Virus record (IMG/VR): IMGVR_UViG_3300009514_000006
Coordinates: 32,001 to 96,000 of that record
Reading direction: 5' to 3' (one strand)
DNA length: 64,000 nt
DNA from: a virus
Below, one piece after another: positions 46,977-60,665 of this stretch (positions within the stretch are counted from its first letter, which is position 1; each line of letters opens with the position of its first letter). The notes beneath the pieces are model-generated. The model did no database searches. It was not told where the DNA came from and saw nothing but the letters and a program-made list of their open reading frames with translations. The position numbers were made by a program, and so were the translations under genes.

Positions 46977-48398
46977 TTAGCTAAGACGACCGATATTAAC
47001 AAAACGGAGCCACTTCTTGTCGGCGAAAAGAATGGGCGTACCATACAGCAAGATCATCCAGCGGTATGCCGGAGCCAGAATGGCCAGATCCATACGCAAC
47101 ATAGGAAGAAGCTGTCGGAACGTAAGAACGCTCGGAGTCATTTCTCCCATGTAGGCGATGTCCGTGAACGGCAGCAAGAAGTTAACATCATCAGGAGTAG
47201 TCGTGCTACTAGGCGTGGCGTTAGCAGCAGGAACCTGAAGGATGAGGCTGTAATCAGCCGGGGTGGTGGAGGCCGCACCACTAGTGGCTTGCGGACGGGT
47301 ACGGTAGACACGGAAATACTCAGCCTGAGTACCCGAAGCGGCATGGGTGATCGTAAGATCAACATGGTTGGTAATCGTAGCAACGGCTTGCTTGTTCGTG
47401 ATGAATCGAGGAGCCGACTCACCAAAACGGTTGGCAGCAGTAACAGCATAGCCGTAATAATTGGTACCGGCCGGTACGCCCTTACCAAAGTCACCATCCG
47501 TACCAGACACACCCGACGCAATGGACGTAGGCTGCGCCGGCGCCGATCCAGACGTAGCAACGGCAGGGGGCGACGGAAGTTGCTTAAGGAAGACGTTCGG
47601 GTTAAGCTCCATCACACCCGCTTGGGTCATAACCGAGTTAACCGACATTCCGACCATTCCGTTTTGCGGGGCCGGAAGGCTGATCCGCTCACGGGGATAG
47701 AAGGTCTTCACCAGGTCACTAGCAACCCGGGTACCCAACCAAAGGTCCGTAGGATAGGCAAATTGCTCGACAAGAAGGTTTGCACCCTCTTCGATGTCGG
47801 CTTCTTGCATCGGCTGACCTTCAAGGTCAATGAACGAGGTGGCGTCAATAAGACTGTCAAGACCGTCCCATTGCTCCGCTTCGCCATCTACGGCCAAGGA
47901 CGAGTCGCCCTTGAACAAACTGTTTTCCATCTTCTCAAGCAGCCAGAGGATACCGTTCTGGTTTTCCAGAGCGATAACATCACCATGAGCAGGATGGACC
48001 ACAGTCATCGGGTGCGTCACTTCACGGGTGACACCGATGTACTTAACAAGCGAGGTACGACGAGCGTACGTCGAGTCTTGCGTGGGGGGTAGTTCGCCTT
48101 CACGAACAAACCCGCCGGAGCTGCTACCATAGTCCACCAACTGGTTGTACTCCTCAACCGTGCTATAAGCAGGGCTCTTAGGAATCTTCTTCCAGAATTT
48201 GATGTGGTGAGCTGTGTGGGTGACGACCTTCAATGAGCCTTCAAGAGACTCAACCCGAAGGGCCGAACCACCCGTTTGACCAGTCAATTGATAACCAGCT
48301 TCAAGAGCTTTCTGCAGATCCTGCAGGTTAGCGGACGAATCTACTCCGAAACCGCTAACGGGCTGCTGGCTGTAATTATTGAGACTAACACCAGACAT
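46977..48398 (-). CDS. Major capsid protein (Herelleviridae-type)
   Basis: SALRVESLE, AYSTVEEY, SLFKGD...EQWDGL, GEMTP...RQLLPM...LLYGTP..FADKKW align by eye with phage K Cps. Predicted maturation site DLQK30|ALEAGY. Confidence 0.95.
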   Translation of the reverse strand: MSGVSLNNYSQQPVSGFGVDSSANLQDLQKALEAGYQLTGQTGGSALRVESLEGSLKVVTHTAHHIKFWKKIPKSPAYSTVEEYNQLVDYGSSSGGFVREGELPPTQDSTYARRTSLVKYIGVTREVTHPMTVVHPAHGDVIALENQNGILWLLEKMENSLFKGDSSLAVDGEAEQWDGLDSLIDATSFIDLEGQPMQEADIEEGANLLVEQFAYPTDLWLGTRVASDLVKTFYPRERISLPAPQNGMVGMSVNSVMTQAGVMELNPNVFLKQLPSPPAVATSGSAPAQPTSIASGVSGTDGDFGKGVPAGTNYYGYAVTAANRFGESAPRFITNKQAVATITNHVDLTITHAASGTQAEYFRVYRTRPQATSGAASTTPADYSLILQVPAANATPSSTTTPDDVNFLLPFTDIAYMGEMTPSVLTFRQLLPMLRMDLAILAPAYRWMILLYGTPILFADKKWLRFVNIGRLS

Positions 48399-48420: not shown

Positions 48421-49449
48421 TTAGCGGTTGTTGCCGCTTGCGAAGTTAAGAACCTTCTGTTGCACTTCAGGCAGCAGTTGGCCACTGGTTTCATACTTGA
48501 TAACATCAAGACTTCCAAGCTGTCCCTTATGGACCATGTCAGTCATAATGTCGGTGATCTGAGCCTTGGTCAGGTCCATGTCCAAGCCGCCCGGGCCGCT
48601 GAAGTTTTTCTTCAGGACCTGAACATCTTGGCCGCCCTGCACCGAACGAAGCTGCGACTTGGGAGCACCAACGGGCTCTTGCGCCTTAGCAATCGCGAGG
48701 TCAGTGGTACCCGAGACATGCTCGCCAATACCCACAACAGCCTCAACAAGAGCCTTATTAAGCTCCTCGTTCTGGCTGTGGGCCTTAGCAAGGTTACCCT
48801 CAAGGGTATTCACTCGATGCTCAAGAGTGGCAACAACATTGGCCAGACTTTTGCCAATTCGAGCTTCGACGCCGCTAATAGCTTCGCCGAAAGCGCGAGT
48901 AAACTCAGCAAGGAAAGGAGAAATCTCAAGACCCTTCTGGAGTTCAGGAGAGTTAAAGGACTTCTTAGCGTCGCCCTCAACCTCGTCGTCCTTACCGCCA
49001 GCGTGGCTGTCCACCACACTACCAGCATCGTCATCCTCACCAGGAGTCCCAGCAGGACCCGGTTTGGCTTTGCCCTTGGCAATACCTTGGAAGCTGTTCG
49101 CGACAGCCCAATTCTCTGCCTTGGTCAACGACTCACCCTTAGCGAGTTTGCTACCGATCAACGGAAGCGGATTGGCTCCCTTGGCGATTGCTACTTCCGC
49201 AGGAGACAAGGCTTGGCTCTTAGCCACCTTATCCGCCAAGCTAGCGCGAACGCTCTTGTAGCTCATGCCATTATAGTCAGTACCGTTATCATCGATACCG
49301 TTGTCCCACTCATTCTGGTCCGTCTCAGACGAACCCCAGCCTGCTTCGCCTACTGACGAATCGCTGGGAGTGTGGTACAACTGCCCCTTTGCCATCGTTT
49401 CTAGGCGCTCCAGGCTTTTCTGGAATTCGCCCTTGTTAATATTCGCCAT
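48421..49449 (-). CDS. Capsid scaffolding protein
   Basis: Between protease and capsid genes; acidic/helical; 15 strict hydrophobic-x-K|[SAG] sites by my count. Confidence 0.8.
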   Translation of the reverse strand: MANINKGEFQKSLERLETMAKGQLYHTPSDSSVGEAGWGSSETDQNEWDNGIDDNGTDYNGMSYKSVRASLADKVAKSQALSPAEVAIAKGANPLPLIGSKLAKGESLTKAENWAVANSFQGIAKGKAKPGPAGTPGEDDDAGSVVDSHAGGKDDEVEGDAKKSFNSPELQKGLEISPFLAEFTRAFGEAISGVEARIGKSLANVVATLEHRVNTLEGNLAKAHSQNEELNKALVEAVVGIGEHVSGTTDLAIAKAQEPVGAPKSQLRSVQGGQDVQVLKKNFSGPGGLDMDLTKAQITDIMTDMVHKGQLGSLDVIKYETSGQLLPEVQQKVLNFASGNNR

Positions 49450-49465
49450 TAGGCACTCCTCTCAG

Positions 49466-50296
49466 TCATTTGTTTAGTTTTCTTTCTGTGAAAATTGCAT
49501 CAACAACAAGCGAAGCCGTGGATCGACCCCACCCTTTGTCCAATTGTAGAGCCTTAATACACTCCTCCCGAGACAGCATTGCCTCTTGAGGAATATCATC
49601 AAGACTTTTAAAGGTAGTTACCTTAGCTCTTCCTTCCAAGGATTGAGGAACTAAAGACCTACCCATACCCCCAACAGAAAGAGCTTTCTCATGCTCTTCT
49701 CTCTCTTGTTTGGGTGTTTCCTTCTCTTCATGCTCGTGCATGTCGTCTTCACTGCCGCACTCACATGAAATAACTGCTTTATCCATAGAATCACACCATT
49801 CTTCAGCACAGAGAGATTTAACTATCTGTGTCCAGGTGCTGGTGTTAACCGGGGCTGCGGTAATAGCTACATCCTTGATCCAACACTTAAGGATGCTTTT
49901 TCCAGCTCGTCGCTTGACTTTCCCCTCAATGGAGAAACCAACTCGTCGTTTAGAGTCAGACTGATCGAGCGACTGTAGGTGCTCCCACCACTTATCGGAG
50001 ATTTCCTTGCCTTTATACAAAAACCCTTTAATCCAGAAGCCATCCTTGGTTATCTTAGCTTCTGTAGGTTCTCCGACTTTATTCTCTGGACCCTCTTTAT
50101 GATCGTTATTGATATAGCCATTTTTCAAGAAGTATTCAAAATCAATACCATCTTGAACAACCCGCTCCCCTTGTAGATCTAGGTCGGCAGTAGACGCAAT
50201 ACCTTCAATCCAGCGAGTGCCATCACCCGTTTTGTTGGCTTTGACAACAGTTGCTGGAAGGAAAAACTGGAAAGTGTCTTTATTAGGCTTACTCAT
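49466..50296 (-). CDS. Prohead maturation protease
   Basis: IEGIASTADLDLQGERVVQDGIDFEYF...GYINNDH, GFSIEG, VAITAAPVN. Confidence 0.92.
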   Translation of the reverse strand: MSKPNKDTFQFFLPATVVKANKTGDGTRWIEGIASTADLDLQGERVVQDGIDFEYFLKNGYINNDHKEGPENKVGEPTEAKITKDGFWIKGFLYKGKEISDKWWEHLQSLDQSDSKRRVGFSIEGKVKRRAGKSILKCWIKDVAITAAPVNTSTWTQIVKSLCAEEWCDSMDKAVISCECGSEDDMHEHEEKETPKQEREEHEKALSVGGMGRSLVPQSLEGRAKVTTFKSLDDIPQEAMLSREECIKALQLDKGWGRSTASLVVDAIFTERKLNK

Positions 50297-50300
50297 GACG

Positions 50301-50334
50301 AAAAAAGGGAGAGACCGCCGAGGCAGCTCTCCCT
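50301..50334 (-). terminator. Terminator-like hairpin ending 4 nt before the protease ATG
   Basis: AGGGAGAG-CTGCCTCGGCGGT-CTCTCCCT followed by TTTTT CGTC ATG. Confidence 0.65.
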
Positions 50335-50367
50335 ATATGGAGTCCTTTAGTATGTGCTAGCTCGATA

Positions 50368-50397
50368 ACTTTACTATGATAGTTTATGTAATGTCAA
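50368..50397 (-). promoter_or_regulatory. Candidate sigma70-type promoter upstream of the protease gene
   Basis: TTGACA-18-TAAAGT; the -35 box overlaps the zinc-ribbon stop codon. Confidence 0.45.
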
Positions 50398-50615
50398 GTA
50401 CTTTTTTTGCTATATCCCTTGATAAACAAAGGAGGATTTGCATTGTCAAAATCTGCTCTAATAGGAACAGGTATCTCTTTGTTACAACCCTTACAAACAG
50501 CCCAAGATGTGCTGTTATCCTTCAGTATCAAGATCTTAGACCTAATCTTAAATCCATTGCCATCGGACTTAATGATTAGTTCTCCACACGAGCAGGTTAG
50601 GGTTGGTGCGTTCAT
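50394..50615 (-). CDS. Com-like zinc-ribbon protein
   Basis: LTCSCGELIIK...AVCKGCNKEI, a two-knuckle ribbon resembling Mu Com (C..C.KLL.K...C.RC). Confidence 0.55.
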   Translation of the reverse strand: MNAPTLTCSCGELIIKSDGNGFKIRSKILILKDNSTSWAVCKGCNKEIPVPIRADFDNANPPLFIKGYSKKST

Positions 50616-51604
50616 ACGTAATTATGTAAAGGCGTTGTATGCAACCACTTACTAAAAACAGACTCACTAGGAGTCCTAGATGTTAGGTCAGAAGAAACTC
50701 TGGGGATGCTCATGAATGATCTATGGTCCATCAAAGGAGCACCAACATTACTCCTCATCTTTGCGTTTTCTTCTATGACCCGAATAACTACAGGGTCCAC
50801 ATACTGCTCCTGAATAACGCTGAGGCAGAAATCAAGATCTTCAGAAGTATTCAAGTTGTACCCCAGCTCTGAAGCTACTTCAATTAGAGATTGTCGGTGA
50901 GCGTATCCTACATCCGCACCTCTATCTAGGAAGCCTTGCATAGAAGTAATGTAGGCATTGCTGGCGTGGTATGTTTGTAGACCCTCTAGAGGTATACCTA
51001 ACTCTACCAGTAAATTCGTGATAAGATGAGGACCAATCCTACGGGGCTCAAAGTAAGATAGATCGCTCTGACTATCTACCTTAGGCACAACAAATAAAGG
51101 TTCTTTTGGATCTCGGTTAGAGCACAGCATCCTTAGGGCCTGAGAGACTTCGGGGGAGCAGTGAATCCTCCTCTTACCTAGACGACAAATCTCTCGGGCA
51201 CAAACAATATCTTTGATGCTCAGACCAGTAATCTCCCACAGACGAAATCTGCCCTGGTCCAGCAACATAAGAATCAAAGCAACAGACTTGTCCTTCATAT
51301 GGGGAGATTTAAACAGGGTGCTAACATAGGATCTAAAAGTAGGAAGACGAGAATCAACAAGAGCATTCTGCTGGTGTATTTTCCACCCACTTTGCCCCGC
51401 CATGTCCTCCTCTAGATAAGAGTATTCATGTGATCCATTAACAGGGTTAACCCACCTAGCGGCCCACAAATTTTTAGGGTCATTAGGGTGATAACCTTGG
51501 TTCCATTCAACAGGAGCACCTGGGTAGGGTGCCCGGGATAACCGGCGCCCATCTTCAGTTAGAAAAGGTGATTTTTCAGGTTCTTGCTTAGTATTGGAAC
51601 CCAT
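50612..51604 (-). CDS. Topoisomerase IB-like protein, degenerate active site
   Basis: RLPTFRSYV, LLDQGRFRL, LGK, LQTYHAS (normally FRT), VASELG, QYVDPVV (SYIDP). Start MGSN at 51604 with GAGGA SD. Confidence 0.7.
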   Translation of the reverse strand: MGSNTKQEPEKSPFLTEDGRRLSRAPYPGAPVEWNQGYHPNDPKNLWAARWVNPVNGSHEYSYLEEDMAGQSGWKIHQQNALVDSRLPTFRSYVSTLFKSPHMKDKSVALILMLLDQGRFRLWEITGLSIKDIVCAREICRLGKRRIHCSPEVSQALRMLCSNRDPKEPLFVVPKVDSQSDLSYFEPRRIGPHLITNLLVELGIPLEGLQTYHASNAYITSMQGFLDRGADVGYAHRQSLIEVASELGYNLNTSEDLDFCLSVIQEQYVDPVVIRVIEENAKMRSNVGAPLMDHRSFMSIPRVSSDLTSRTPSESVFSKWLHTTPLHNYV

Positions 51605-52394
51605 CTTTTGAGTCCTCTTCTGCAAGACTAGCAACACCCTCAGGACCTGCTTGCGGATCTGAGTGATCTAGTAGATCTGGATCTTCGAATGTTGCAGACT
51701 GCATAGTCATAGGAGACATCTGCTCAAACAAGTCTAGTTGATCTTCTAAAAAGCCTTTGACCTCTGCGCGGATATGGTTTTCAGTGACAGGAAAGTACTG
51801 ATAGCCATCTCCCCATATTTCAGCAGCCAAAGGCATCAGCTGAGCTTCGTCAACAGAATCAATGAGCATGAGAGCTTGGTTTACAAACATTGGGTCATTT
51901 ACATTCATCACAAGAGCCGGAGGAGCTGCTTCCTGCTCTGTCTCTACTGGCGCCTCCTCGTCTCCGAATGCCTTCTTCACAAACTTATTTTTGAAATCAT
52001 CTATGGAATACTCTTTCATAGATCCAAAAAATTTAGGTGTGTTGAAGTGCATAAGATAAGCCGCTTTGGCCTCCCTAGCCGTACAAAACCCAATCATAAC
52101 TTTCTGTTCATCCAGCTTTTTAAATTCAGGTTTCTTTAGTTGATCTACAACAAAGACTTTCGGGGAGTCATCATGGGGACCCACAAACACATCAAGCTGA
52201 TCTCCGTCCCAACCCTTATCTTTCATACCACAAAAATATCCATAAGGATAATGCATCTTTGTGGTACCTTTCTCACCCGTTGCTTCGTCGGTCCAATGAC
52301 GAACTTGACCCTTATCTGTCTCAATAGAGATCTCTAGATCCTGAAACTCAATTTTTCGAGCTAGCTTTCTAGCTTTTTCAGTGACCTTGAACAT
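51588..52394 (-). CDS. Inorganic pyrophosphatase-like (phage polyvalent-protein InPase) domain protein
   Basis: ISIETDKG...MHYPYGY...DGDQLDVFVG...VFVVDQ...DEQKVMIGF...AY, followed by an acidic tail. Confidence 0.85.
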   Translation of the reverse strand: MFKVTEKARKLARKIEFQDLEISIETDKGQVRHWTDEATGEKGTTKMHYPYGYFCGMKDKGWDGDQLDVFVGPHDDSPKVFVVDQLKKPEFKKLDEQKVMIGFCTAREAKAAYLMHFNTPKFFGSMKEYSIDDFKNKFVKKAFGDEEAPVETEQEAAPPALVMNVNDPMFVNQALMLIDSVDEAQLMPLAAEIWGDGYQYFPVTENHIRAEVKGFLEDQLDLFEQMSPMTMQSATFEDPDLLDHSDPQAGPEGVASLAEEDSKDGFQY

Positions 52395-52395
52395 C

Positions 52396-53928
52396 CTAGT
52401 ACTGTTTCATCGCCTCAATGGCCTTCTGCTGGGCTTCATACAGCTGCCTCTGATAAGAATCACTACCGGGACCTTGCCCGTATACTCCAGGCGCCTCTGG
52501 ATTATCCTCTGCTCCCTCGCCTACCGCGATAGTAGTAGACGCTGCGCCGTCTGGGGGAGAAAACGTTCCGTCAGTATTATGGTTAGGATTACCGCCTAAA
52601 TGTCCCGGAACTCCCGACATACGATTCCTGGGCATCTCACCCTCAGATATGTCAGCTATCGAGTCAAAGGCCCCTGCATGAGTTGGTGGTGTTCGTAGCT
52701 CCTTGGTTCCATTAGCATTAAGCTCTTGTCCAGCACTTCCCGAATCAATAAGGTCCATCAGGTCCTGCAGCTGTGCGCGGATGGCTCCTAAATCTAAGCC
52801 ACTATCCATAGGGCTACCCGAGTCTCCTGTCGGAGCTGTTTCTAGGGAGTCATCGTAGGCAAAATCTTCTTCACCACCAAGAGAGCCCTCGTCTTCTGGG
52901 AGCATACTCTCCATAGAAAAATCATCATCATATGCCGCATCATCATAATCATCGCCGCCAAAGGATTCTGCGTCCTGAGGTCTTTCGTTGACATTAGTCA
53001 TGGGACCCACCGGGCCACCAGTGGCCGTATGCTTCATACCAGGAGCGGGGCCGCTACCACTAGCGGCCATCAACGGTTTATTCTGCTCCGGGGAAACATC
53101 TGGTTGCGACAGAAGATTATCAAATGATCCATTATTTCTGTCATCCATACTGTTCATAGACTCAACAAAGCGATCAGAAGGACTCAGTGAATCCTTCCTG
53201 CGGTCTTCATGTGCGTCAGCATTATTCATGAACCGCATAGTGTCTTCAGGGGTCTCAGCCTCATCACTCAACAATCTGTTGAGCATCTCTGCTTCTTCAT
53301 GATCCTCAGGAGAGAAGTCTTCGTGACCAGAGAAATAAGGATCATCAAAGATATCTAATCCATGAGTTGTATGCCCCATTACATCTGCTTTAGTGTCATT
53401 TTGGAGCTGTGGAGCGATAGCCTTAGGAGCACCTGGAAGCTGCGCAGGGACACTTGGGGCTGCTTTTTTTACCGATCTCTTAGCTCCTCCTTTGCCAGAC
53501 CTTTCCCCTGGCGAGGGCAGGCGACGGACATGTCTACCCCCCTCTCGTAGCTCCAAAAGAGATTCCAATTTCTCGTGAGCACGAAGTTTATGCTCGCGTT
53601 CAGTTTTAGCCTTATCCTCTTCTGCGGTTGACTGGGATCCTACATCTTCAGACGCAGCAAACTTACCAGAATGAGGGTCCCGCTTGCGCTGAAATTGTGG
53701 GCCAGAAGCAGTATATTTCACTGGTACTCTGATGGCTTTGTTCAAGTATAGAGAAGGCCCATGCTCAACAATAACAGGAGGTGTGATAACATTGTTACCT
53801 CGTGTCGGAGGAGTACCACACCTGGCCGCCTCTATAGACTTCTCAATATAGGACGGTTTTCGTTCTTGGGGAATCACTACATTAGGAGTAACCCAATTAA
53901 GACGTTTGATACTTCCGTGGTCCGACAT
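52396..53928 (-). CDS. Acidic, largely disordered putative head-internal protein
   Basis: 510 aa rich in D/E/P/G; short motifs RDPHSGKF and GHTTHG...FSPEDHEEA; hydrophobic-x-K|[SA] sites IEKS, LNKA, VKKA. Confidence 0.5.
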   Translation of the reverse strand: MSDHGSIKRLNWVTPNVVIPQERKPSYIEKSIEAARCGTPPTRGNNVITPPVIVEHGPSLYLNKAIRVPVKYTASGPQFQRKRDPHSGKFAASEDVGSQSTAEEDKAKTEREHKLRAHEKLESLLELREGGRHVRRLPSPGERSGKGGAKRSVKKAAPSVPAQLPGAPKAIAPQLQNDTKADVMGHTTHGLDIFDDPYFSGHEDFSPEDHEEAEMLNRLLSDEAETPEDTMRFMNNADAHEDRRKDSLSPSDRFVESMNSMDDRNNGSFDNLLSQPDVSPEQNKPLMAASGSGPAPGMKHTATGGPVGPMTNVNERPQDAESFGGDDYDDAAYDDDFSMESMLPEDEGSLGGEEDFAYDDSLETAPTGDSGSPMDSGLDLGAIRAQLQDLMDLIDSGSAGQELNANGTKELRTPPTHAGAFDSIADISEGEMPRNRMSGVPGHLGGNPNHNTDGTFSPPDGAASTTIAVGEGAEDNPEAPGVYGQGPGSDSYQRQLYEAQQKAIEAMKQY

Positions 53929-53936
53929 AGAGTCTC

Positions 53937-54410
53937 CTACTTGCCGCTTAGTGTACGGCTTTGTCCAGGAACAAAAACACCACCACTACCGGCATTATAT
54001 GCAACTTCTTCCGCTAAATGTGCCATAACTAGCTGCTTTAACTTAGACTTCTCAGTACGAGACAGCTGGGTACGGATCTCCGCCATCATTGGTTCCATTT
54101 TACGAAACTTAAGAGGGAACACAACAGTAAGCAAAGCCTCCTCCATCGGAGTCAAAAAACCATTGTACTCGGCCTTGTGGATAGCATCAATAATGGCATT
54201 AGAAGCCCAAACATAATCTAGCTCACCGTTGGGATAACGCCGCATAGTACTCATCATATGGGTACTCGGTCTGTCCTCAAGGTTATGGTATTTGCTCTCG
54301 TGTTGTTCGTGCGGAGCAAACGACTCGTAGCTAGGATTAGTCTCTTTAGCTTTTACGATATTCGGATTCTGCATATGCAGAGGAACTCTTGGTGTGCTGT
54401 TACTGCTCAT
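53937..54410 (-). CDS. Hypothetical head-cluster protein
   Basis: 157 aa, GAGGA SD; IVKA and IHKA sites. Confidence 0.55.
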   Translation of the reverse strand: MSSNSTPRVPLHMQNPNIVKAKETNPSYESFAPHEQHESKYHNLEDRPSTHMMSTMRRYPNGELDYVWASNAIIDAIHKAEYNGFLTPMEEALLTVVFPLKFRKMEPMMAEIRTQLSRTEKSKLKQLVMAHLAEEVAYNAGSGGVFVPGQSRTLSGK

Positions 54411-54537
54411 TTTTTCCTCTCGATATTAATGTATAGAGGTTGACTCTTTTTGATTGAAGAGTCCTTTACCAACAAGGGAACCTTGTTTGGTACCGAAATC
54501 CACAAAGGAATTGATTTTTCTATCTTACCCATATAGG

Positions 54538-55668
54538 TCACCCACAATTCGGACAGAAAAGATTACCCCCAGCAGATTTTGTCAATCGAGCATTGCAGGA
54601 GGAACAACAAGTCGATTTGTAAAGACCACAAGAAAAACAACCAACAGATGATTTATACACAGTACCATGAGTAGGACAATTATTATAAGGGTCTGCCACT
54701 CGGTTATAGTCCTTACCAGAAACATCTTTAAGGGTATCCCCAACAAGAGGAGCTACACCTTCGGGACTATAAAGAGCCGAGTTCTGACGGGTCATCGTCT
54801 TCATGGCAGAGTTATACACGCCAAAGGGGTCATAAACTCCCTGCGGGCGGGGGATGTGCATAGAACGAGTTGTTAGGGCCTTTCCCATACCCTGAAGTTT
54901 GGTACCCAAGGAATACTCTGGGCTACCCTTAGGCTGATTAGCCGTCAAACTCTGTCCCGCTCCATGAAGGGACGCTTGCCGGCTAATTGTATGACCAGCT
55001 TCGGGCTTAGTGCCAGAAGTATACTCAGGTTTATTAGTAATCTGCCTTACGGTTTGAGCCGGGGGTACAGTAGGTTCTTTTCTAGCTCGATCTATCTCAG
55101 ATCCCTTACCAGACTCAAAAGCCTTGTCTGTCCACTCTTTCTTAAGCGTCTCTCCCTCTTCATCAAACAGGTCCTCTAGACTCTTCTCAGCAGGAGGCAT
55201 ACCTGGTAGAGGGCCTTTAGCTCTTTCCCCGGGAGTTTCAGAGGTTACTGTTCCCTTTAGCTTAGAAGGAACAGGAGGCGGACCAGATTTAGGAACAGGA
55301 GGAGGACCAGCCTTAGATACCCCAGCTTGGTTAGCTGCGATTGCTATTGCTTGCTTTCGTCCGCCAGGATACTTATCGGGATTGTCTTTCATCTCTCTCA
55401 TATTAGCGGAAATCTTCCGCTCAAAGTGAGATTCCTTTTTATCCTTGTCCTCATCTTCATCATCAGAGGCTTTAAGCAAGTCTAGCAAGTTAGTCATAGT
55501 ATTAGGTCCCTTATTTACTGGCGTTTTAATAAGCCACGGTTTTTTATCTTTAGGATAATCGTCCACACTAAAATCACCAACAGAACTATCTTTATACCCC
55601 CCACCTCGCTTACGATCTTGTTCAGCAATCTGCTGGGGGGTCATATTTGGTGTATATGATTTCTTCAT
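54538..55668 (-). CDS. Low-complexity head-cluster protein with QAIAIA motif and Cys-rich C-terminus
   Basis: ATGA overlap with the portal stop; KISANMREM...RKQAIAIAANQAG; C-terminal CPTH...CFSC...CCSSC...CPNC; 8 strict cleavage-motif matches. Confidence 0.55.
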   Translation of the reverse strand: MKKSYTPNMTPQQIAEQDRKRGGGYKDSSVGDFSVDDYPKDKKPWLIKTPVNKGPNTMTNLLDLLKASDDEDEDKDKKESHFERKISANMREMKDNPDKYPGGRKQAIAIAANQAGVSKAGPPPVPKSGPPPVPSKLKGTVTSETPGERAKGPLPGMPPAEKSLEDLFDEEGETLKKEWTDKAFESGKGSEIDRARKEPTVPPAQTVRQITNKPEYTSGTKPEAGHTISRQASLHGAGQSLTANQPKGSPEYSLGTKLQGMGKALTTRSMHIPRPQGVYDPFGVYNSAMKTMTRQNSALYSPEGVAPLVGDTLKDVSGKDYNRVADPYNNCPTHGTVYKSSVGCFSCGLYKSTCCSSCNARLTKSAGGNLFCPNCG

Positions 55669-57356
55669 CCCAGATCCCCCACATCAGGCAGGCCGTCTGC
55701 GGCGCTGTATTTAGGGGGAGCCTCAAAACCTTGTTGTGAAGAAGAACCAGGAAGAGCAGCAGGAGGCTCCGCAGACTCAGGAGCAGGTTGAGCTGCCTGT
55801 GCAGCCTCTGTTGCTTGCTGCAGCTGCATCAGCTGTAGATATGTGGGGTTCAAGGGAACGTCACCACCAGGGAGATCCGGCAGGTCCGCTTGTCGGCGAA
55901 CTTCATTAAGCGTTAGATAACTAGATAGCTGTTCTACAAGAAGATTATGTTTGTCCTGCTCAGACAGCTCATCCAAACCAACGAACTCAAGAGTAAAATG
56001 ATCATCGATCCGATCAATAATATTCTTGTTGATCATCCTAGCAACAAATCTCAGAAGAGGCTTCAAGCCCCTATCGCGAGATGCTTTCAGTTTCCACTCT
56101 TGAGAGGACTCAAACAAAGGAGTCTGCTGTACTCCTCCGTGCATGTCAAAGTTTAGCTCTGCTGGATCTATGAGGAAAACACCGCAGGTAATTTTCAATA
56201 GATATTCCATCCATCGGCCAAATTCCATTTCTTGATTCGACCTAGCCAACTCGATCCATTCAATGCCCTCGGATTGAAGAACCGGGGTTTTCCATGCGTT
56301 ATCTACTCCTGCAACCTGCGCAGACCAATGCCGCCTAAACTCTTCAAGCTGATCTGGGGTCCAGTTATCTCCTCGTAGGTTAAGAATACCCTTAGGGGCA
56401 CTACCTTGCGTAAAAAAGTGCCTATTATACGTCTCAGCATTGAGATGAGCAGTGATAATAGTAATCAGTTGCTCTAACTCAGATAAACCATAACCAGAAG
56501 TATAGATATCAGTTCTAGGATTTCTAACCCCAAAAATCATCTCCTTATCACTATAAATATTTTCAATTTGTCCGTTCACAACCTGTACATAGGCTACTTC
56601 GTCACCTTCAGCGGTACGAATGTCGTCATTACCATATTCCCGACCCTGGTATAGTCCCGCAAACCTAGAAGGAACAGAAGGAACAAAGCCTGTCCGACTA
56701 TGATAAGAAGAATTGATCCCAACATAACGATTGTCTGAGGCTATTCGTATAGTAGAGGCATCAACCGCTAAAAACTCATAAGGAAGACCTAAACGATCAG
56801 GAACCACCTCAGTACAACTTTGGTCAAACAAAAGTGAGTCACGAACTATCTTTCGTAGCCAACTCTCAAAATCATCTCTTGGTTGTCTAGAGTATGGGTT
56901 CTTTTCAGCCCGACCGCAGTTCAATACAAAATTTTCAAGTTCTTTAATAAAGGCAACTTCGGAAGCAGTTGTGGGGTGGTCTGCCTCTTTGTGTTTAATC
57001 ACAAAACCAAGACTACGAGTAGACCTATAGGGCTGAGAAAAAGAAGCAACCTGAGCCGCTCGGGTGTTAATGATGGCGCTAATAATGCTTAGCTGGCCTG
57101 AAATCTTCTTAAGGGTGTCATAGGTTACGCTGTATCTACGATCTTTATACCCTAAGCTATACTGAAGGGTGAGAGGGTCGCTGAACCAACTTTTTGGTGA
57201 CCTTTGGGAATCCGTATTAGGAAGCTGCTTCCACCCCTTCTGGATGTTTTCCCGAACCATCGGCATAATCTGCTGAGTTGCGACGGCCATCTTAGCCGCC
57301 TCAGCGATTATGCTAGCATAATCAATATCCGGAGGATTGTTAGGTTTCTTAGCCAA
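55665..57356 (-). CDS. Portal protein
   Basis: IISAIINTRAAQV, FESWLRKIVRDSLLFDQ, FLAVDASTIR, GYGLSELE, FFTQGSAPKGIL, FLIDPAELNF; Twort/K-type portal. Confidence 0.95.
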   Translation of the reverse strand: MAKKPNNPPDIDYASIIAEAAKMAVATQQIMPMVRENIQKGWKQLPNTDSQRSPKSWFSDPLTLQYSLGYKDRRYSVTYDTLKKISGQLSIISAIINTRAAQVASFSQPYRSTRSLGFVIKHKEADHPTTASEVAFIKELENFVLNCGRAEKNPYSRQPRDDFESWLRKIVRDSLLFDQSCTEVVPDRLGLPYEFLAVDASTIRIASDNRYVGINSSYHSRTGFVPSVPSRFAGLYQGREYGNDDIRTAEGDEVAYVQVVNGQIENIYSDKEMIFGVRNPRTDIYTSGYGLSELEQLITIITAHLNAETYNRHFFTQGSAPKGILNLRGDNWTPDQLEEFRRHWSAQVAGVDNAWKTPVLQSEGIEWIELARSNQEMEFGRWMEYLLKITCGVFLIDPAELNFDMHGGVQQTPLFESSQEWKLKASRDRGLKPLLRFVARMINKNIIDRIDDHFTLEFVGLDELSEQDKHNLLVEQLSSYLTLNEVRRQADLPDLPGGDVPLNPTYLQLMQLQQATEAAQAAQPAPESAEPPAALPGSSSQQGFEAPPKYSAADGLPDVGDLG

Positions 57357-57357
57357 A

Positions 57358-58275
57358 TTACTTTCTCCACCCCTTTAAATCATTCAGCTTGGATCGTAGA
57401 GACTTATTCATCCACCTAGCATATAACACCTTCTGGGTGGGGTTCATACGAGTATCGCCAGCTTCTATTTGTTCAGGGGTCTTTCCTACTACTTCTAGTA
57501 GAAACTGTTTCTCTTTATCAGAGGCTGTATGGAAGGTTCTAGGAGCTGTGCGCTGGAGACTCTGCCCCAGCCCCTTGATCAACGATGCAGCATTCCAAGA
57601 TTTTTCTACCTCTTTTAGCTTTGAATAATAATCTTGATCCTCAGTAAGATGGTCCATCGCAATCTCAGTAGCTATGGACCTATCAGAAGTGTGCTCAAGT
57701 TCTACTTTAACTCCCTCATCCAATTTATCTTGGTCAAAGTCAGACGGACTTTTACCATCAGCAAGACCGCCAGGAATGGCATCTGCTTTCTGAGTAATCT
57801 CTTCCTCTTCGTGCCACTGTCTACCCACTTCAGGCAGATCCGGCGTGACAGAACCAGCGGCACCAGGATGCTTTGCTGTGGCGAGTCTCTGCTGGGCGAC
57901 CACATCCTGTTCTTCGTCCACCACAGGCATAGATCCCATGGCTACATCTGCTTTTTCCATTCGGACAATATCGCAGCCTAGAGAACAACTTTTGAGAAGC
58001 TTATTAGCCTCCCATACTTTGTCCCTATCGTTTGCTTTCACCAAGGAGAACTTACCGTCCGGTATGTAGCTAAAGTAGTACAAATCATCTTTAGAAGACT
58101 TAACAATGCCTCTAAACACATTGTTCATAACACCATAACGAACGGACTCTGGGACAACACCGTTCTTGATAGACTTATGAACAATAGCAACTTCAGTCAT
58201 CCTGTTAGAAGGAGACAACGAAGTATAATAGTCCATAATGGACTCATCTGTATTATTTACTTTTTGTTCAGCCAT
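57358..58275 (-). CDS. Multidomain head-cluster protein with DUF5661-like domain
   Basis: GGLADGKSPSDFDQDKLDEGVKVELEHTSDRSIATEIAMDHLTEDQDYYSKL; 8 strict cleavage-motif matches. Confidence 0.7.
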   Translation of the reverse strand: MAEQKVNNTDESIMDYYTSLSPSNRMTEVAIVHKSIKNGVVPESVRYGVMNNVFRGIVKSSKDDLYYFSYIPDGKFSLVKANDRDKVWEANKLLKSCSLGCDIVRMEKADVAMGSMPVVDEEQDVVAQQRLATAKHPGAAGSVTPDLPEVGRQWHEEEEITQKADAIPGGLADGKSPSDFDQDKLDEGVKVELEHTSDRSIATEIAMDHLTEDQDYYSKLKEVEKSWNAASLIKGLGQSLQRTAPRTFHTASDKEKQFLLEVVGKTPEQIEAGDTRMNPTQKVLYARWMNKSLRSKLNDLKGWRK

Positions 58276-59960
58276 TCTTTTAAACTTTCCATAGATCTCT
58301 TAAAAGGTACAGGTTTACCAGGTTTTGGAGAATTTATTGGTGGCCGAGAAAAATTAGAACCCGTACCTGGGTCGCCTATGCCCTCTCTTCTCCCCGGAAT
58401 AAGCTGCCCCACGGCAGCAGCCGTTGGACCAACGGTACCACCAGGGTCACCCAAGCCAGCCCCCATAGCGTACGCTGTACCAAGAGTAGGCAACTTAACT
58501 GCCCAAGGATTATCCTTACTTGTAGAGCTAGATTCCTTTTCCTTAGGAGACTTATCCTTCTCTTCAGGATCATCTCCCGGCAAATCAAGATGTTCCGGGG
58601 CCTGTGCTTGAGGGTCCGGGGTCTGTGCTTGAGGGTCCGGAGTCTGTGCTTGAGGGTCCGGGGCCTGTGCTCGGGGTGCCTCTTTAGCTGCTCTAGTGGC
58701 CTGTTCGACTTTTTGCCTCTGCCTCTCTGCCCAGGGAATATTTCTTTGTTGTTCGTTAAAATTGGTAGGAGGGTCACGAAGAGGCAACATGTCCTCTAGA
58801 CCAGCACCGGGACGAGAAGAAGCTTGGGACCTAGACGGAACCAAATGCGTAGGAGGCGGAGGAAGGGGCTCTGCCTGCTGTTGCGGGGCCTGTGCTCGGG
58901 GTGCCTCTTTAGCTGCTCTCAACGGTAAACGATCCGTATCAAAGGGCGCCTGAAGAGGAAGACGACTAGTATTGAAGGGACCCGACGGAGGCGGAGGAAG
59001 GGGCTCTGCCTGCTGTTGCGGGGCCTGTGCTCGGGGTGCCTGTGGTTTAGCTACGGTTATTTTTTGTCTAGCTCCTGCTACTCTCTGCTGTCGCATCGAA
59101 GAAGCGGGTTTCTTGCCCGCCATAACAGGAGACGCAGTAGGAGCACGAGGCTTAGTAGGAGCCGCAGTAGGAGCACGAGGCTTAGTAGGAGCCGCAGTAG
59201 GAGCACGAGGCTTAGTAGGAGCCGCAGTAGGAGCACGAGGCTTAGCAGGCGCCGCAGTAGGAGCACGAGGCTTAGCAGGCGCCGCAGTAGGAGCCGCAGT
59301 AGGAGCACGAGGCTTAGCAGGCGCCGCAGTAGGAGCCGCTGCTACGGGTTCCCGGGGTTTTCCCGTTCCCTTAGAAACATCAAACATCCATCCAAGTGAC
59401 TTATGCGTTTCCTCGTCTTCACCGTCTTTAACTTCTGGCGAAGACGCTATTTGATAACCAAGAGAACGAGATGGTTTATCTTCTTTTTCATCCCTATACT
59501 CTTTTATCTTATCGAGGGCTTTACCAAGCTTACCTGGATTGGTCTGTACCCTAGTGGCAGCTCTTTCCACGGTCGGCCCAGCCTCAGTATCACCATATTC
59601 AAAATCACTCTGTCCTGGCTTGCGAGAAGTAGTAGAGACACGAGATCTACCTGCTACGTCCACAGGAGAGGGAGAAAGGGGCGCCTTAAGAGGCAGTCTA
59701 TCTATGATATTCTTCGACACACTATTAGGAGAAACACGATGCCCTTCAACGGATATAGAGGCTTGGTAAGAGCAAAGCTTACCAGCCCCGTGCTTGTGCC
59801 CGCACTGAGGGCACTTAGCTCCTTTAATGTCATTACCACCCACAGGCCCGCCCATCATCTCTTCCTTCAGCCGGGAGGCTACGGCCTTAGGGGGTTTGAC
59901 CCCCTTCTGCATGTCGGCCATGTTGATAAACTTAGCGGACTTTTGAGTGGGTGACTTCAT
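58257..59960 (-). CDS. Pro/Ala/Lys-rich repeat protein with N-terminal zinc knuckle
   Basis: CPQCGHKHGAGKLC; KPRAPTAAP(T/A) x6; PDPQAQT x3; duplicated APRAQAPQQQAEPLPPPP. Confidence 0.6.
   Translation of the reverse strand: MKSPTQKSAKFINMADMQKGVKPPKAVASRLKEEMMGGPVGGNDIKGAKCPQCGHKHGAGKLCSYQASISVEGHRVSPNSVSKNIIDRLPLKAPLSPSPVDVAGRSRVSTTSRKPGQSDFEYGDTEAGPTVERAATRVQTNPGKLGKALDKIKEYRDEKEDKPSRSLGYQIASSPEVKDGEDEETHKSLGWMFDVSKGTGKPREPVAAAPTAAPAKPRAPTAAPTAAPAKPRAPTAAPAKPRAPTAAPTKPRAPTAAPTKPRAPTAAPTKPRAPTASPVMAGKKPASSMRQQRVAGARQKITVAKPQAPRAQAPQQQAEPLPPPPSGPFNTSRLPLQAPFDTDRLPLRAAKEAPRAQAPQQQAEPLPPPPTHLVPSRSQASSRPGAGLEDMLPLRDPPTNFNEQQRNIPWAERQRQKVEQATRAAKEAPRAQAPDPQAQTPDPQAQTPDPQAQAPEHLDLPGDDPEEKDKSPKEKESSSTSKDNPWAVKLPTLGTAYAMGAGLGDPGGTVGPTAAAVGQLIPGRREGIGDPGTGSNFSRPPINSPKPGKPVPFKRSMESLKEWLNKK
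58602..58664. repeat. 21-bp tandem repeat x3
   Basis: CTGTGCTTGAGGGTCCGG(G/A)G(T/C). Confidence 0.9.
59134..59337. repeat. 30-bp tandem repeat x6 with two 12-bp subunits
   Basis: GCAGTAGGAGCACGAGGCTTAG(T/C)AGG(A/C)GCC. Confidence 0.95.
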
Positions 59961-60665
59961 TTAATCCGTTTCTGCCAAAGCAGCAGCACCCATCGGCATA
60001 GGATTAACACCTACCGACGATGAACTGTTCGCGTTCGGCTGAGCATTGCCACCTTTGCGGGGCCGCCCACGTTTTCGTTCTTCTCTGCTTTTAGCAGCTT
60101 GATCTTGTGCCCTTGAGGAGTCTCGTTCCCGTCGGGGGACAGTGGAGTTGGACGAGACCAGCAATACGTTGTCACCCTTAGCTACAATGGATTTCTCTAC
60201 AGACACAAAATCCTTAGAATAATCAGTAGCCTCAGTAACCAACAACTCAACATGAGAAGTGCCAGAGGTGGCCAAGCTATATCCAGTTCCTTTAGGGAGA
60301 AGGATATAACCACCCTCATTGATGAGGGACGTGTTTGTATTCTCAATACTGTTGTCTTCTTTAATCGTACCAAGAATCAAATAGACACTACCCCTCATTA
60401 CACGAGCAGTTTTATCTCTCTTTTTATTGATTCCGAACCCTGTAGAGTTACCGGCATACATACACTCAAAATATTGGGAGAATTCGCTATTGCTAAATAT
60501 TTCGTTACGATACCCATGAAGGGTATCCACCTTAGCAACATTCGCAGGGGCCGAGCTACCGATCCCTCTGCGGTTCATAATATCAGAGTGCTTGGTGCCA
60601 GCGTGTGGGTCAAGGCGGCGTGTCTTGCGGCCTTTGTTGTCATTTCTATTCGGGTTATAGCTCAT
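59961..60665 (-). CDS. Cupin-fold protein lacking metal-binding histidines
   Basis: AGNSTGF...ARVMRGSVYL...INEGGYILLPKGTGYSLATSGTSHVELLVTE follows cupin motif 1/2 spacing. Confidence 0.55.
   Translation of the reverse strand: MSYNPNRNDNKGRKTRRLDPHAGTKHSDIMNRRGIGSSAPANVAKVDTLHGYRNEIFSNSEFSQYFECMYAGNSTGFGINKKRDKTARVMRGSVYLILGTIKEDNSIENTNTSLINEGGYILLPKGTGYSLATSGTSHVELLVTEATDYSKDFVSVEKSIVAKGDNVLLVSSNSTVPRRERDSSRAQDQAAKSREERKRGRPRKGGNAQPNANSSSSVGVNPMPMGAAALAETD

Follow-up and report, generated by a model that had tools for sequence, protein, structure and literature searches.

Knowledge of how tailed phages pack proteins into their heads, and of what those proteins do once delivered, is drawn largely from a handful of models, among them T4, phiKZ/SPN3US and P1. 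In T4, the protease gp21 cuts at (I/L)-x-Glu↓ (the arrow marks the cut) in its substrates gp22, gp67, gp68, IPI-III and Alt, the internal proteins carrying an N-terminal capsid-targeting sequence; gp21 itself is one of the prohead serine proteases of the assemblin fold, a clan that also includes HK97 gp4 and the herpesvirus protease. In phiKZ and SPN3US, inner-body and ejection proteins are processed at (S/A/G)-x-Glu↓ by gp175 and gp245, respectively (PMC10052503, PMC5694885). Iyer et al. (2017) argued that the inorganic pyrophosphatase (InPase)-type domain of polyvalent proteins is packaged and injected (PMC5512222), and phage P1 encodes DarB next to its portal and protease genes, the protein bearing a capsid-localisation signal at its N-terminus (P1 virion study, PMC9024508). 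Here, these systems are compared with a cassette of head genes in an uncultured phage, lying in a 64,000-nucleotide stretch (hereafter the window) that covers bases 32001-96000 of the single 125,614-bp virus record IMGVR_UViG_3300009514_000006. The scaffold, the protease and several further proteins of this cassette carry a short motif, hydrophobic-x-K↓S/A/G, which we read, with a probability of roughly 70%, as the cleavage site of the prohead protease, cut in substrates that would reside in the prohead.

Motif enrichment in the head-gene cassette

Nearly all long open reading frames (ORFs) of the window lie on the minus strand and make up the structural module of a myovirus. Taken in transcription order, the head genes, all on that strand, run p234, p567, p305, portal, p376, p157, p510, InPase268, p341, zinc ribbon, protease, scaffold and capsid, with six genes between portal and protease and three upstream of the portal. 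The strict form of the motif was defined as [ILVMF]-x-K-[SAG], the presumed cut falling after Lys (position P1) and before Ser, Ala or Gly (position P1'), and its frequency, ORF by ORF over the whole 125.6-kb genome (179 ORFs), was set against composition-preserving shuffles, in which Lys content is kept. The scaffold (342 aa; 48421-49449; a weak match to the scaffold family phrog_15087) has the motif at 15 of its 28 Lys where 1.8 are expected (Poisson p 1e-9). Nine sites occur in p376 (54538-55668), or eight without the trivial start M1-K-K-S (1.7 expected, Poisson p 8e-5), and eight in p305 (57358-58275; 1.4 expected, Poisson p 1e-4), with the protease (276 aa; 49466-50296) a weaker outlier at five (1.4 expected, Poisson p 0.016). 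Exactly four ORFs genome-wide have a shuffle p < 0.01, and they are these four members of the cassette.

Taken as a whole, the cassette (12 ORFs) holds 55 sites against 15.3 expected, whereas the 167 remaining ORFs hold 104 against 106.9 expected, and the null model is thus calibrated. The major capsid protein (MCP) is a marginal case (4 vs 1.05 expected, Poisson p 0.022), and the portal has a single site. Singly, none of p234, p567, p510, p157, InPase268, p341 and the zinc ribbon is significant: p234 has three sites (0.9 expected), the zinc ribbon three (0.5 expected) and p341 one (0.8 expected), p567 shows no enrichment at three against 1.9, and p510, p157 and InPase268 have three, two and one, respectively; pooled, they reach 16 against 7.1 (p = 0.003). 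Among tail proteins, the tube and the 613-aa and 594-aa baseplate proteins have no site and the 776-aa sheath has one. An earlier reading of the letters alone (the sequence-only reading) had counted the motif by eye, noted its near absence from tube, baseplate and sheath, described the six genes after the portal and the three before it, and proposed the genome-wide test; what it had observed was borne out, and of its counts only that for p376 differs, at nine rather than eight, through the inclusion of M1-K-K-S.

The motif statistics depend on Lys. With R, E, D, Q, N or T in its place, the pattern falls to background in the scaffold, p376, p305 and the protease, which leaves amphipathic-helix periodicity as no explanation for the enrichment. 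Around the scaffold lysines, P3 is hydrophobic at 18/28 (background 0.23) and P1' is small at 19/28 (background 0.30); P1' is Gly in seven of the 15 scaffold sites and in 19 of 55 across four scaffolds of the clade. Position within the protein is likewise uneven, in that 8/12 cassette proteins have a site within residues 4-40, as against 19/151 others (Fisher p 7e-5).

Capsid, scaffold, portal and protease in relatives and in Herelleviridae

Six related contigs were compared, retrieved from IMG/VR via P0015 and a p157 alignment: G001 (147.5 kb, capsid 73% identical), L013 (from a 171-kb contig), L014, L015, L016 and L018 (from a 163-kb contig). When IMG/VR was scanned for peptide patterns based on the protease, the A1 alignment or P0004, no relatives came up, and a search for near-identical DNA among deposited phages found none. 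Between p234 and the capsid gene, gene order is unchanged in all six relatives. Their scaffolds carry 12-15 motif sites, and in G001, at 48% identity, 10 of the 15 scaffold sites fall in the same column; among the large ORFs of G001, genome-wide, only the scaffold (13 vs 2.1) and the protease (6 vs 1.4) are significant. The test for N-terminal sites gives 9/12 cassette proteins against 25/217 others in G001 (p 2e-6).

The MCP (473 aa; 46977-48398, just outside the block 48421-60665 to which the sequence-only reading was directed; phrog_752, E 2e-97) shares 42-47% identity with capsid proteins of Herelleviridae (SPO1-like, Bastille-like and others), in alignments that cover at least 93% of its length. 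Its predicted propeptide, residues 1-30 (48309-48398), ends at LQK30↓A, a site kept in G001, and this lysine shares a MAFFT column with LNK↓A of SPO1 and YungSlug and with VVK24↓S of phage K, so that DLQK30↓A does stand where the sequence-only reading had placed it. In the portal (563 aa; 55665-57356; PF04860, E 5e-21; phrog_12, E 5e-58), the one site, IQK40↓G, closes a predicted N-terminal propeptide (57237-57356), and x-K↓[GAS]-W-K-Q-[IL]-P-N is kept some 40-50 residues in by 6/6 relatives. The portal genes themselves vary: those of L013 (3831-6815) and L018 (5704-8706) encode about 1000 aa through insertion of an intein with a LAGLIDADG endonuclease (PF14890, PF14528), the portal of L015 has 706 aa, and that of the present phage has no intein insert.

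The protease belongs to the family phrog_1028 ('head maturation protease', E 1e-52), and the scaffold and then the capsid gene lie directly downstream of it. Its sites include K19↓A near the N-terminus and K160↓S161, which closes the catalytic domain; H66 (in D-D-H-K), S122 (in G-F-S-I-x-G-K) and K160↓S161 are invariant across five proteases of about 50% identity. On this pattern, H66 and S122 are candidate catalytic residues, their order and spacing matching the catalytic His of assemblin-fold prohead proteases with its Ser some 50-55 residues further on, and K160↓S161 is a likely self-trimming site. Searches with the protease gave no Pfam-A match at E <= 0.01 and only noise among PDB sequences. 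The top three Foldseek matches in PDB to an AlphaFold2 model built from only five sequences were to T4 gp21 (5JBL; E 3e-5, probability 1.0), with the human cytomegalovirus protease next, the model having a mean predicted local distance difference test (pLDDT) score of only 54 and a template-modelling (TM) score by query of 0.31.

The same shuffle test was applied to the head modules of SPO1, Bacillus phage YungSlug and phage K, taken from annotated records. In SPO1 the scaffold has the motif at 11 of 22 Lys (1.3 expected) and the protease has eight sites (1.5 expected); in YungSlug the figures are 14 of 25 Lys and nine; in phage K they are seven (1.4 expected) and six (1.4 expected). The portals of all three have a motif site in the first 50 residues, and their sheaths and other tail proteins lie at or below background. 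Since these phages carry it too, the motif most plausibly reflects what a prohead protease of the Herelleviridae type recognises, and its presence in scaffold, protease and capsid N-terminus, aligned with SPO1, YungSlug and phage K, is how a protease recognition code would be expected to behave, as the sequence-only reading had proposed. The code is older than this phage and not special to it; the specific feature here is the enlarged, syntenic head cassette, which uncultured relatives alone share. A search of the open literature found no paper on a multi-site Lys code in Herelleviridae scaffolds. Upstream of the YungSlug portal, and directly adjoining it, lies an 869-aa gene annotated as a PARP polymerase (L002:3094-5703) with four sites against 5.3 expected; a place beside the portal is therefore, by itself, no predictor of the code.

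Extra proteins of the cassette

Several of the remaining cassette proteins have a leader that ends at the motif. In p157, a conserved small head-module protein (53937-54410), the leader comprises residues 1-20 (54351-54410) and ends at IVK20↓A. The strict motif occupies this column in 37/37 homologues, which are 43-68% identical: Lys is invariant at P1, whereas P3 is I, L, M, V or F in 11, 11, 10, 3 and 2 of them, P2 is free, and P1' is A, S or G in 31, 3 and 3. The public gene call for p157 (P0121, 145 aa) begins 12 codons downstream, at Met13, and so would take away the first 12 residues of a 20-residue leader that 35/37 homologues conserve; of the two, the longer ORF is probably the true one. 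The neighbouring p510 (52396-53928), largely acidic and of low complexity, has a leader of residues 1-30 (53839-53928) ending at IEK30↓S; a motif site lies within about 30 residues of the N-terminus in 6/7 relatives, and LNK64↓A is kept in G001. The two neighbours share a leader of the form G-[PS]-[RK]-x-P-L-[HN]-[MW], for p510 also written G-[SP]-[KR]-[KR]-P-L-N-W, which no other protein of these genomes has. This leader was considered as a universal address and set aside, as it occurs in p157 and p510 only and the other leaders resemble it just in their terminal motif. Rich in Pro/Ala repeats and containing a CxxC-H-x-H...C knuckle, p567 (58257-59960) has MQK19↓G as its N-terminal site, and a short leader with the motif at its end is present in 3/3 recognisable homologues. 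The same gene contains 30-nt tandem repeats (59127-59339; also listed as 59127-59294; 5.6 copies, 97% matches) that encode the P-R-A-P-T-A-A-P type, and a second array of 21-nt units (58594-58671) that encodes repeats of the P-Q-A-Q-x-P-D type.

The two proteins with many sites are built differently. An N-terminal helix, a Pro/Gly-rich linker and a C-terminal module with a Cys-rich ribbon make up p376, in which MGK263↓A stands just before the conserved C-terminal module; the lengths of this family vary greatly, and hydrophobic-x-K↓A-[LM]-T directly precedes that one conserved module in 5/6. The conserved pre-portal protein p305 is enriched in 17/17 homologues (30-43% identical; 104 sites vs 14 expected), with sites that shift between neighbouring alignment columns from one homologue to the next, a turnover of positions. 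Across relatives, the sites behave as a motif under selection. An AlphaFold2 model of p305 (17 sequences) has a folded domain at residues 8-107 with pLDDT above 90 and disorder over 108-223, and K108 and the later sites fall in disordered linkers; comparison of the model with PDB gave no significant match. Inserted in p305 is a DUF5661 domain (residues 185-225; PF18905, E 7e-10), in this phage only: it is absent from 16 full-length homologues, and in L015 DUF5661 is fused instead to the InPase protein. Homologues of p305 and p157 are known in metagenomes only (soil and others). Among 50,697 deposited phage genomes there was no homologue of p157, p376 or p510, and for p305 there were only DUF5661-domain matches, none of them full-length; Pfam and NCBIfam searches with p567, p376, p157, p510 and the scaffold gave no match, and the first four have no family assignment.

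InPase268 (51588-52394) consists of one recognisable domain, a polyvalent-protein-type inorganic pyrophosphatase (residues 13-137; PF18823, E 6.5e-32), followed by a C-terminal domain; its sole site, VKK141↓A, separates the two domains and is also present in G001, and its PHROG matches are to minor head, virion and DarB-like proteins. Relatives have a larger InPase protein, fused to GNAT in L013 and to DUF5661 in L015, and the placement of DUF5661, InPase and GNAT amounts to a shuffling of modules within the cassette. The InPase gene of L018 (12236-14806) is interrupted by an intein (LAGLIDADG match), and also has a weak MuF match. The next gene, p341 (50612-51637), encodes a tyrosine-recombinase or topoisomerase-IB (TopIB)-like domain, on the strength of an Atlas match to TopIB models (TM 0.56-0.57) with integrase-like features that serves as a lead only; the corresponding protein of G001 has a weak Phage_integrase match. 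This stand-alone remnant matches just the C-terminal third of a larger protein, of 937-1046 aa, that every one of the six relatives has; in 5/6, that protein begins with an 8-16-residue leader with a terminal motif. When the relatives' large protein was searched against the present genome by tblastn, only residues ~620-940 mapped, the N-terminal ~620 residues and the leader being missing.

Directly upstream of the protease gene, a two-knuckle zinc-ribbon protein of 73 aa (zn73; 50394-50615) has its first site right after the first Cys pair, where it is kept in 5/5 relatives; conceivably, it is a small pseudo-substrate or regulator of the protease. The block opens with p234 (59961-60665), cupin-like by Atlas features and structure and with a weak TIGR03214 match. 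Past the window's end, a plus-strand block (genome 96390-107361) holds about 15 genes, among them protein pairs with common N-termini (for example of the M-P/S-x-Y-x-K-I-L-D-R-x-G-E-N type). It was considered as head cargo and rejected, as these N-termini resemble tail-fibre or receptor-binding adaptors and the motif counts are at background.

Proposed processing, packaging and delivery

If the motif is the cut site of the prohead protease, a course of events can be proposed. Portal, scaffold, protease and capsid would co-assemble into a prohead with p305, p376, p157, p510, p567, the InPase protein and the zinc ribbon, joined in relatives by the ~1000-aa protein with its C-terminal TopIB/integrase-like domain, and the leaders would probably double as capsid-targeting peptides. 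The protease would then chop the scaffold into peptides (predicted fragments of 5-56 residues), trim itself, take N-terminal propeptides of ~20-40 residues off capsid, portal, p157 and p510, and cut p567 after Lys19; p305 and p376 would be cut at several linkers, separating their modules. The folded remnants (the InPase domain, the DUF5661 piece, the p157 core and the C-terminal module of p376) would probably stay in the head, from which the enzyme domains at least would probably enter the host with the DNA. The sequence-only reading had taken the extra proteins of a code-marked cassette to be polyproteins. As for the marking, conserved leaders and linkers in several of the extra proteins uphold it, and p234, p341 and InPase268, which are not enriched, do not share in it; the term polyprotein suits p305, p376 and perhaps InPase268, most others having a single N-terminal propeptide.

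In this scheme cleavage, encapsidation, retention and ejection are all inferred, and a number of particulars weigh against reading the motif as a protease code throughout the cassette. In the present phage p234, p341 and InPase268 are at background. Although syntenic in all relatives, p234 gives no sign of being a protease substrate, with no site conserved in G001 and no N-terminal site in 5/6 relatives (L014 has one, at about residue 62), and p341 has neither a conserved site nor the leader of its long homologues. Half of the p305 sites (K34, K59, K80 and K95, four of the eight) lie inside the confidently folded compact domain, perhaps out of reach of the protease, and the number of sites is consequently not the number of cuts. 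The homologues in the conservation tests are related, so that their counts are not independent; the structural tie of the protease to gp21 comes from a model of low confidence; and the lysine of VVK24↓S in phage K is taken here as the maturation cut published for K-like and A511-like capsids, although the search of the open literature turned up no paper that states that cut.

Three other explanations have to be weighed against protease cleavage and delivery of cargo. The least credible of them denies the motif a function and derives it from composition, helical periodicity or common descent: scaffolds are indeed helical and rich in Ala, Lys and Leu, a hydrophobic residue at i and a small one at i+3 would fit one helix face, and several p305 sites fall in regular secondary structure, yet shuffles that keep composition yield 1.8 scaffold sites rather than 15, no other residue tried at P1 shows the enrichment, p157 sites vary exactly within the degeneracy of the motif, and unrelated proteins carry it at their N-termini. 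Gly is moreover a poor helix former, and its share at P1', together with the dependence on Lys, makes an artefact of helix periodicity very unlikely. A scarcely more probable alternative keeps the motif functional and dispenses with the phage protease's cut, treating it as a docking motif for scaffold or protease binding, or as the site of a host trypsin-like protease. Sites in folded domains and in the zinc-ribbon knuckle would suit binding or pseudo-substrate inhibition better, and the cut itself is a prediction. Against this, the capsid site falls in the N-terminal motif column of phage K, the protease has a motif site where its own domains meet, a trait of prohead proteases that trim themselves, and wherever the motif is used, in SPO1, in phage K and in this clade, it goes together with the protease gene.

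A more serious contender, albeit one we consider unlikely, accepts the extra proteins as true substrates and assigns them to an assembly-only prohead core, an auxiliary scaffold like T4 gp67, gp68 and gp22 that is degraded and expelled with nothing functional delivered. It draws on the scaffold-like site densities of p305 and p376, with their long disordered, acidic or Pro-rich stretches, on the want of a recognisable enzyme domain in p157, p510, p376 and p567, and on a cassette order as strictly conserved as that of assembly genes. However, the InPase, the TopIB/integrase-like domain and the relatives' GNAT and DUF5661 have no obvious assembly role and shuffle like effector modules, and the single N-terminal site of most other cassette proteins fits trimming over destruction. 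As InPase and DUF5661 are domains of polyvalent proteins thought to be packaged (PMC5512222), they count in favour of packaged cargo. Delivery of functional cargo to the host is a tentative proposal to which we give somewhat less than even odds, and it is held more loosely than protease cleavage at the motif.

The cassette can be set beside the described systems. Its capsid, portal and protease are homologous to those of Herelleviridae (SPO1, phage K, A511), with the same column for the capsid site and the same enrichment in scaffold and protease; unlike the classical members, in which the protease gene directly follows the portal gene (as the sequence-only reading had stated for K-like phages), six genes intervene here and three stand upstream, so that the homology of a Herelleviridae-type head module is present in this phage and the adjacency of portal, protease, scaffold and capsid is not. 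With T4 it shares a prohead serine protease, possibly of like fold (5JBL being the best match of the low-confidence model), a short motif with hydrophobic P3, a multi-site scaffold, leaders that end at the presumed cut site and a protease predicted to trim itself. A short N-terminal leader ending at the motif, a T4-type trait, is found in p157, p510, the portal, p567, the MCP, the protease and the large p341 homologues. It differs from T4 in having Lys rather than Glu at P1, P1' limited to Ser, Ala or Gly, cargo families that are unrelated, a capsid, portal and protease of Herelleviridae lineage, and genes that form one cassette around the portal. As in phiKZ and SPN3US, one protease would act on many head proteins at a short motif and remove propeptides, and head-borne enzymes would be ejected; in contrast to those phages, the genome is 126 kb and not jumbo, nothing points to an inner body, the P1 residue is Lys, and candidate substrates number about 9-11. 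The InPase and DUF5661 modules beside portal and protease genes, fused or swapped in relatives, recall the polyvalent proteins and the Dar proteins of phage P1. Here, however, most modules have a small gene to themselves instead of being joined in a single giant protein, and processing is predicted to go through the prohead protease, not embedded zincin peptidases. Two or more effector-type domains in one polypeptide, the polyvalent trait, do not occur in this phage, in which DUF5661 sits in the non-effector p305, and do occur in L013 (InPase with GNAT) and L015 (DUF5661 with InPase).

The sequence-only reading had put the cassette forward as an undescribed system, which goes too far: the principle is known from T4 and phiKZ/SPN3US, and the code is common to classical Herelleviridae. 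What sets it apart from T4 and phiKZ is that P1 is Lys, that P1' is restricted, that the capsid machinery is of Herelleviridae type and that its cargo families come from metagenomes only. A possible view, offered with reserve, is that internal head proteins arose independently a third time, beside T4 and phiKZ, in an uncultured lineage related to Herelleviridae. At least seven lineage-only families would there be addressed by leaders and released by a Lys-specific protease of assemblin fold, among them a pyrophosphatase and, in the majority of members, a ~1000-aa protein with a C-terminal TopIB/integrase-like domain, delivered with the DNA.

Should protease cleavage at the motif hold, hydrophobic-x-K↓S/A/G would predict head cargo and propeptides from sequence across Herelleviridae-like phages, a rule that would reach a large and medically used family (phage K, A511, SPO1 and relatives) together with its uncultured cousins. 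The leader peptides would become usable for loading foreign proteins into capsids, and the pyrophosphatase, the TopIB-like domain and GNAT would be flagged as candidates for early-acting roles in anti-defence or host take-over.

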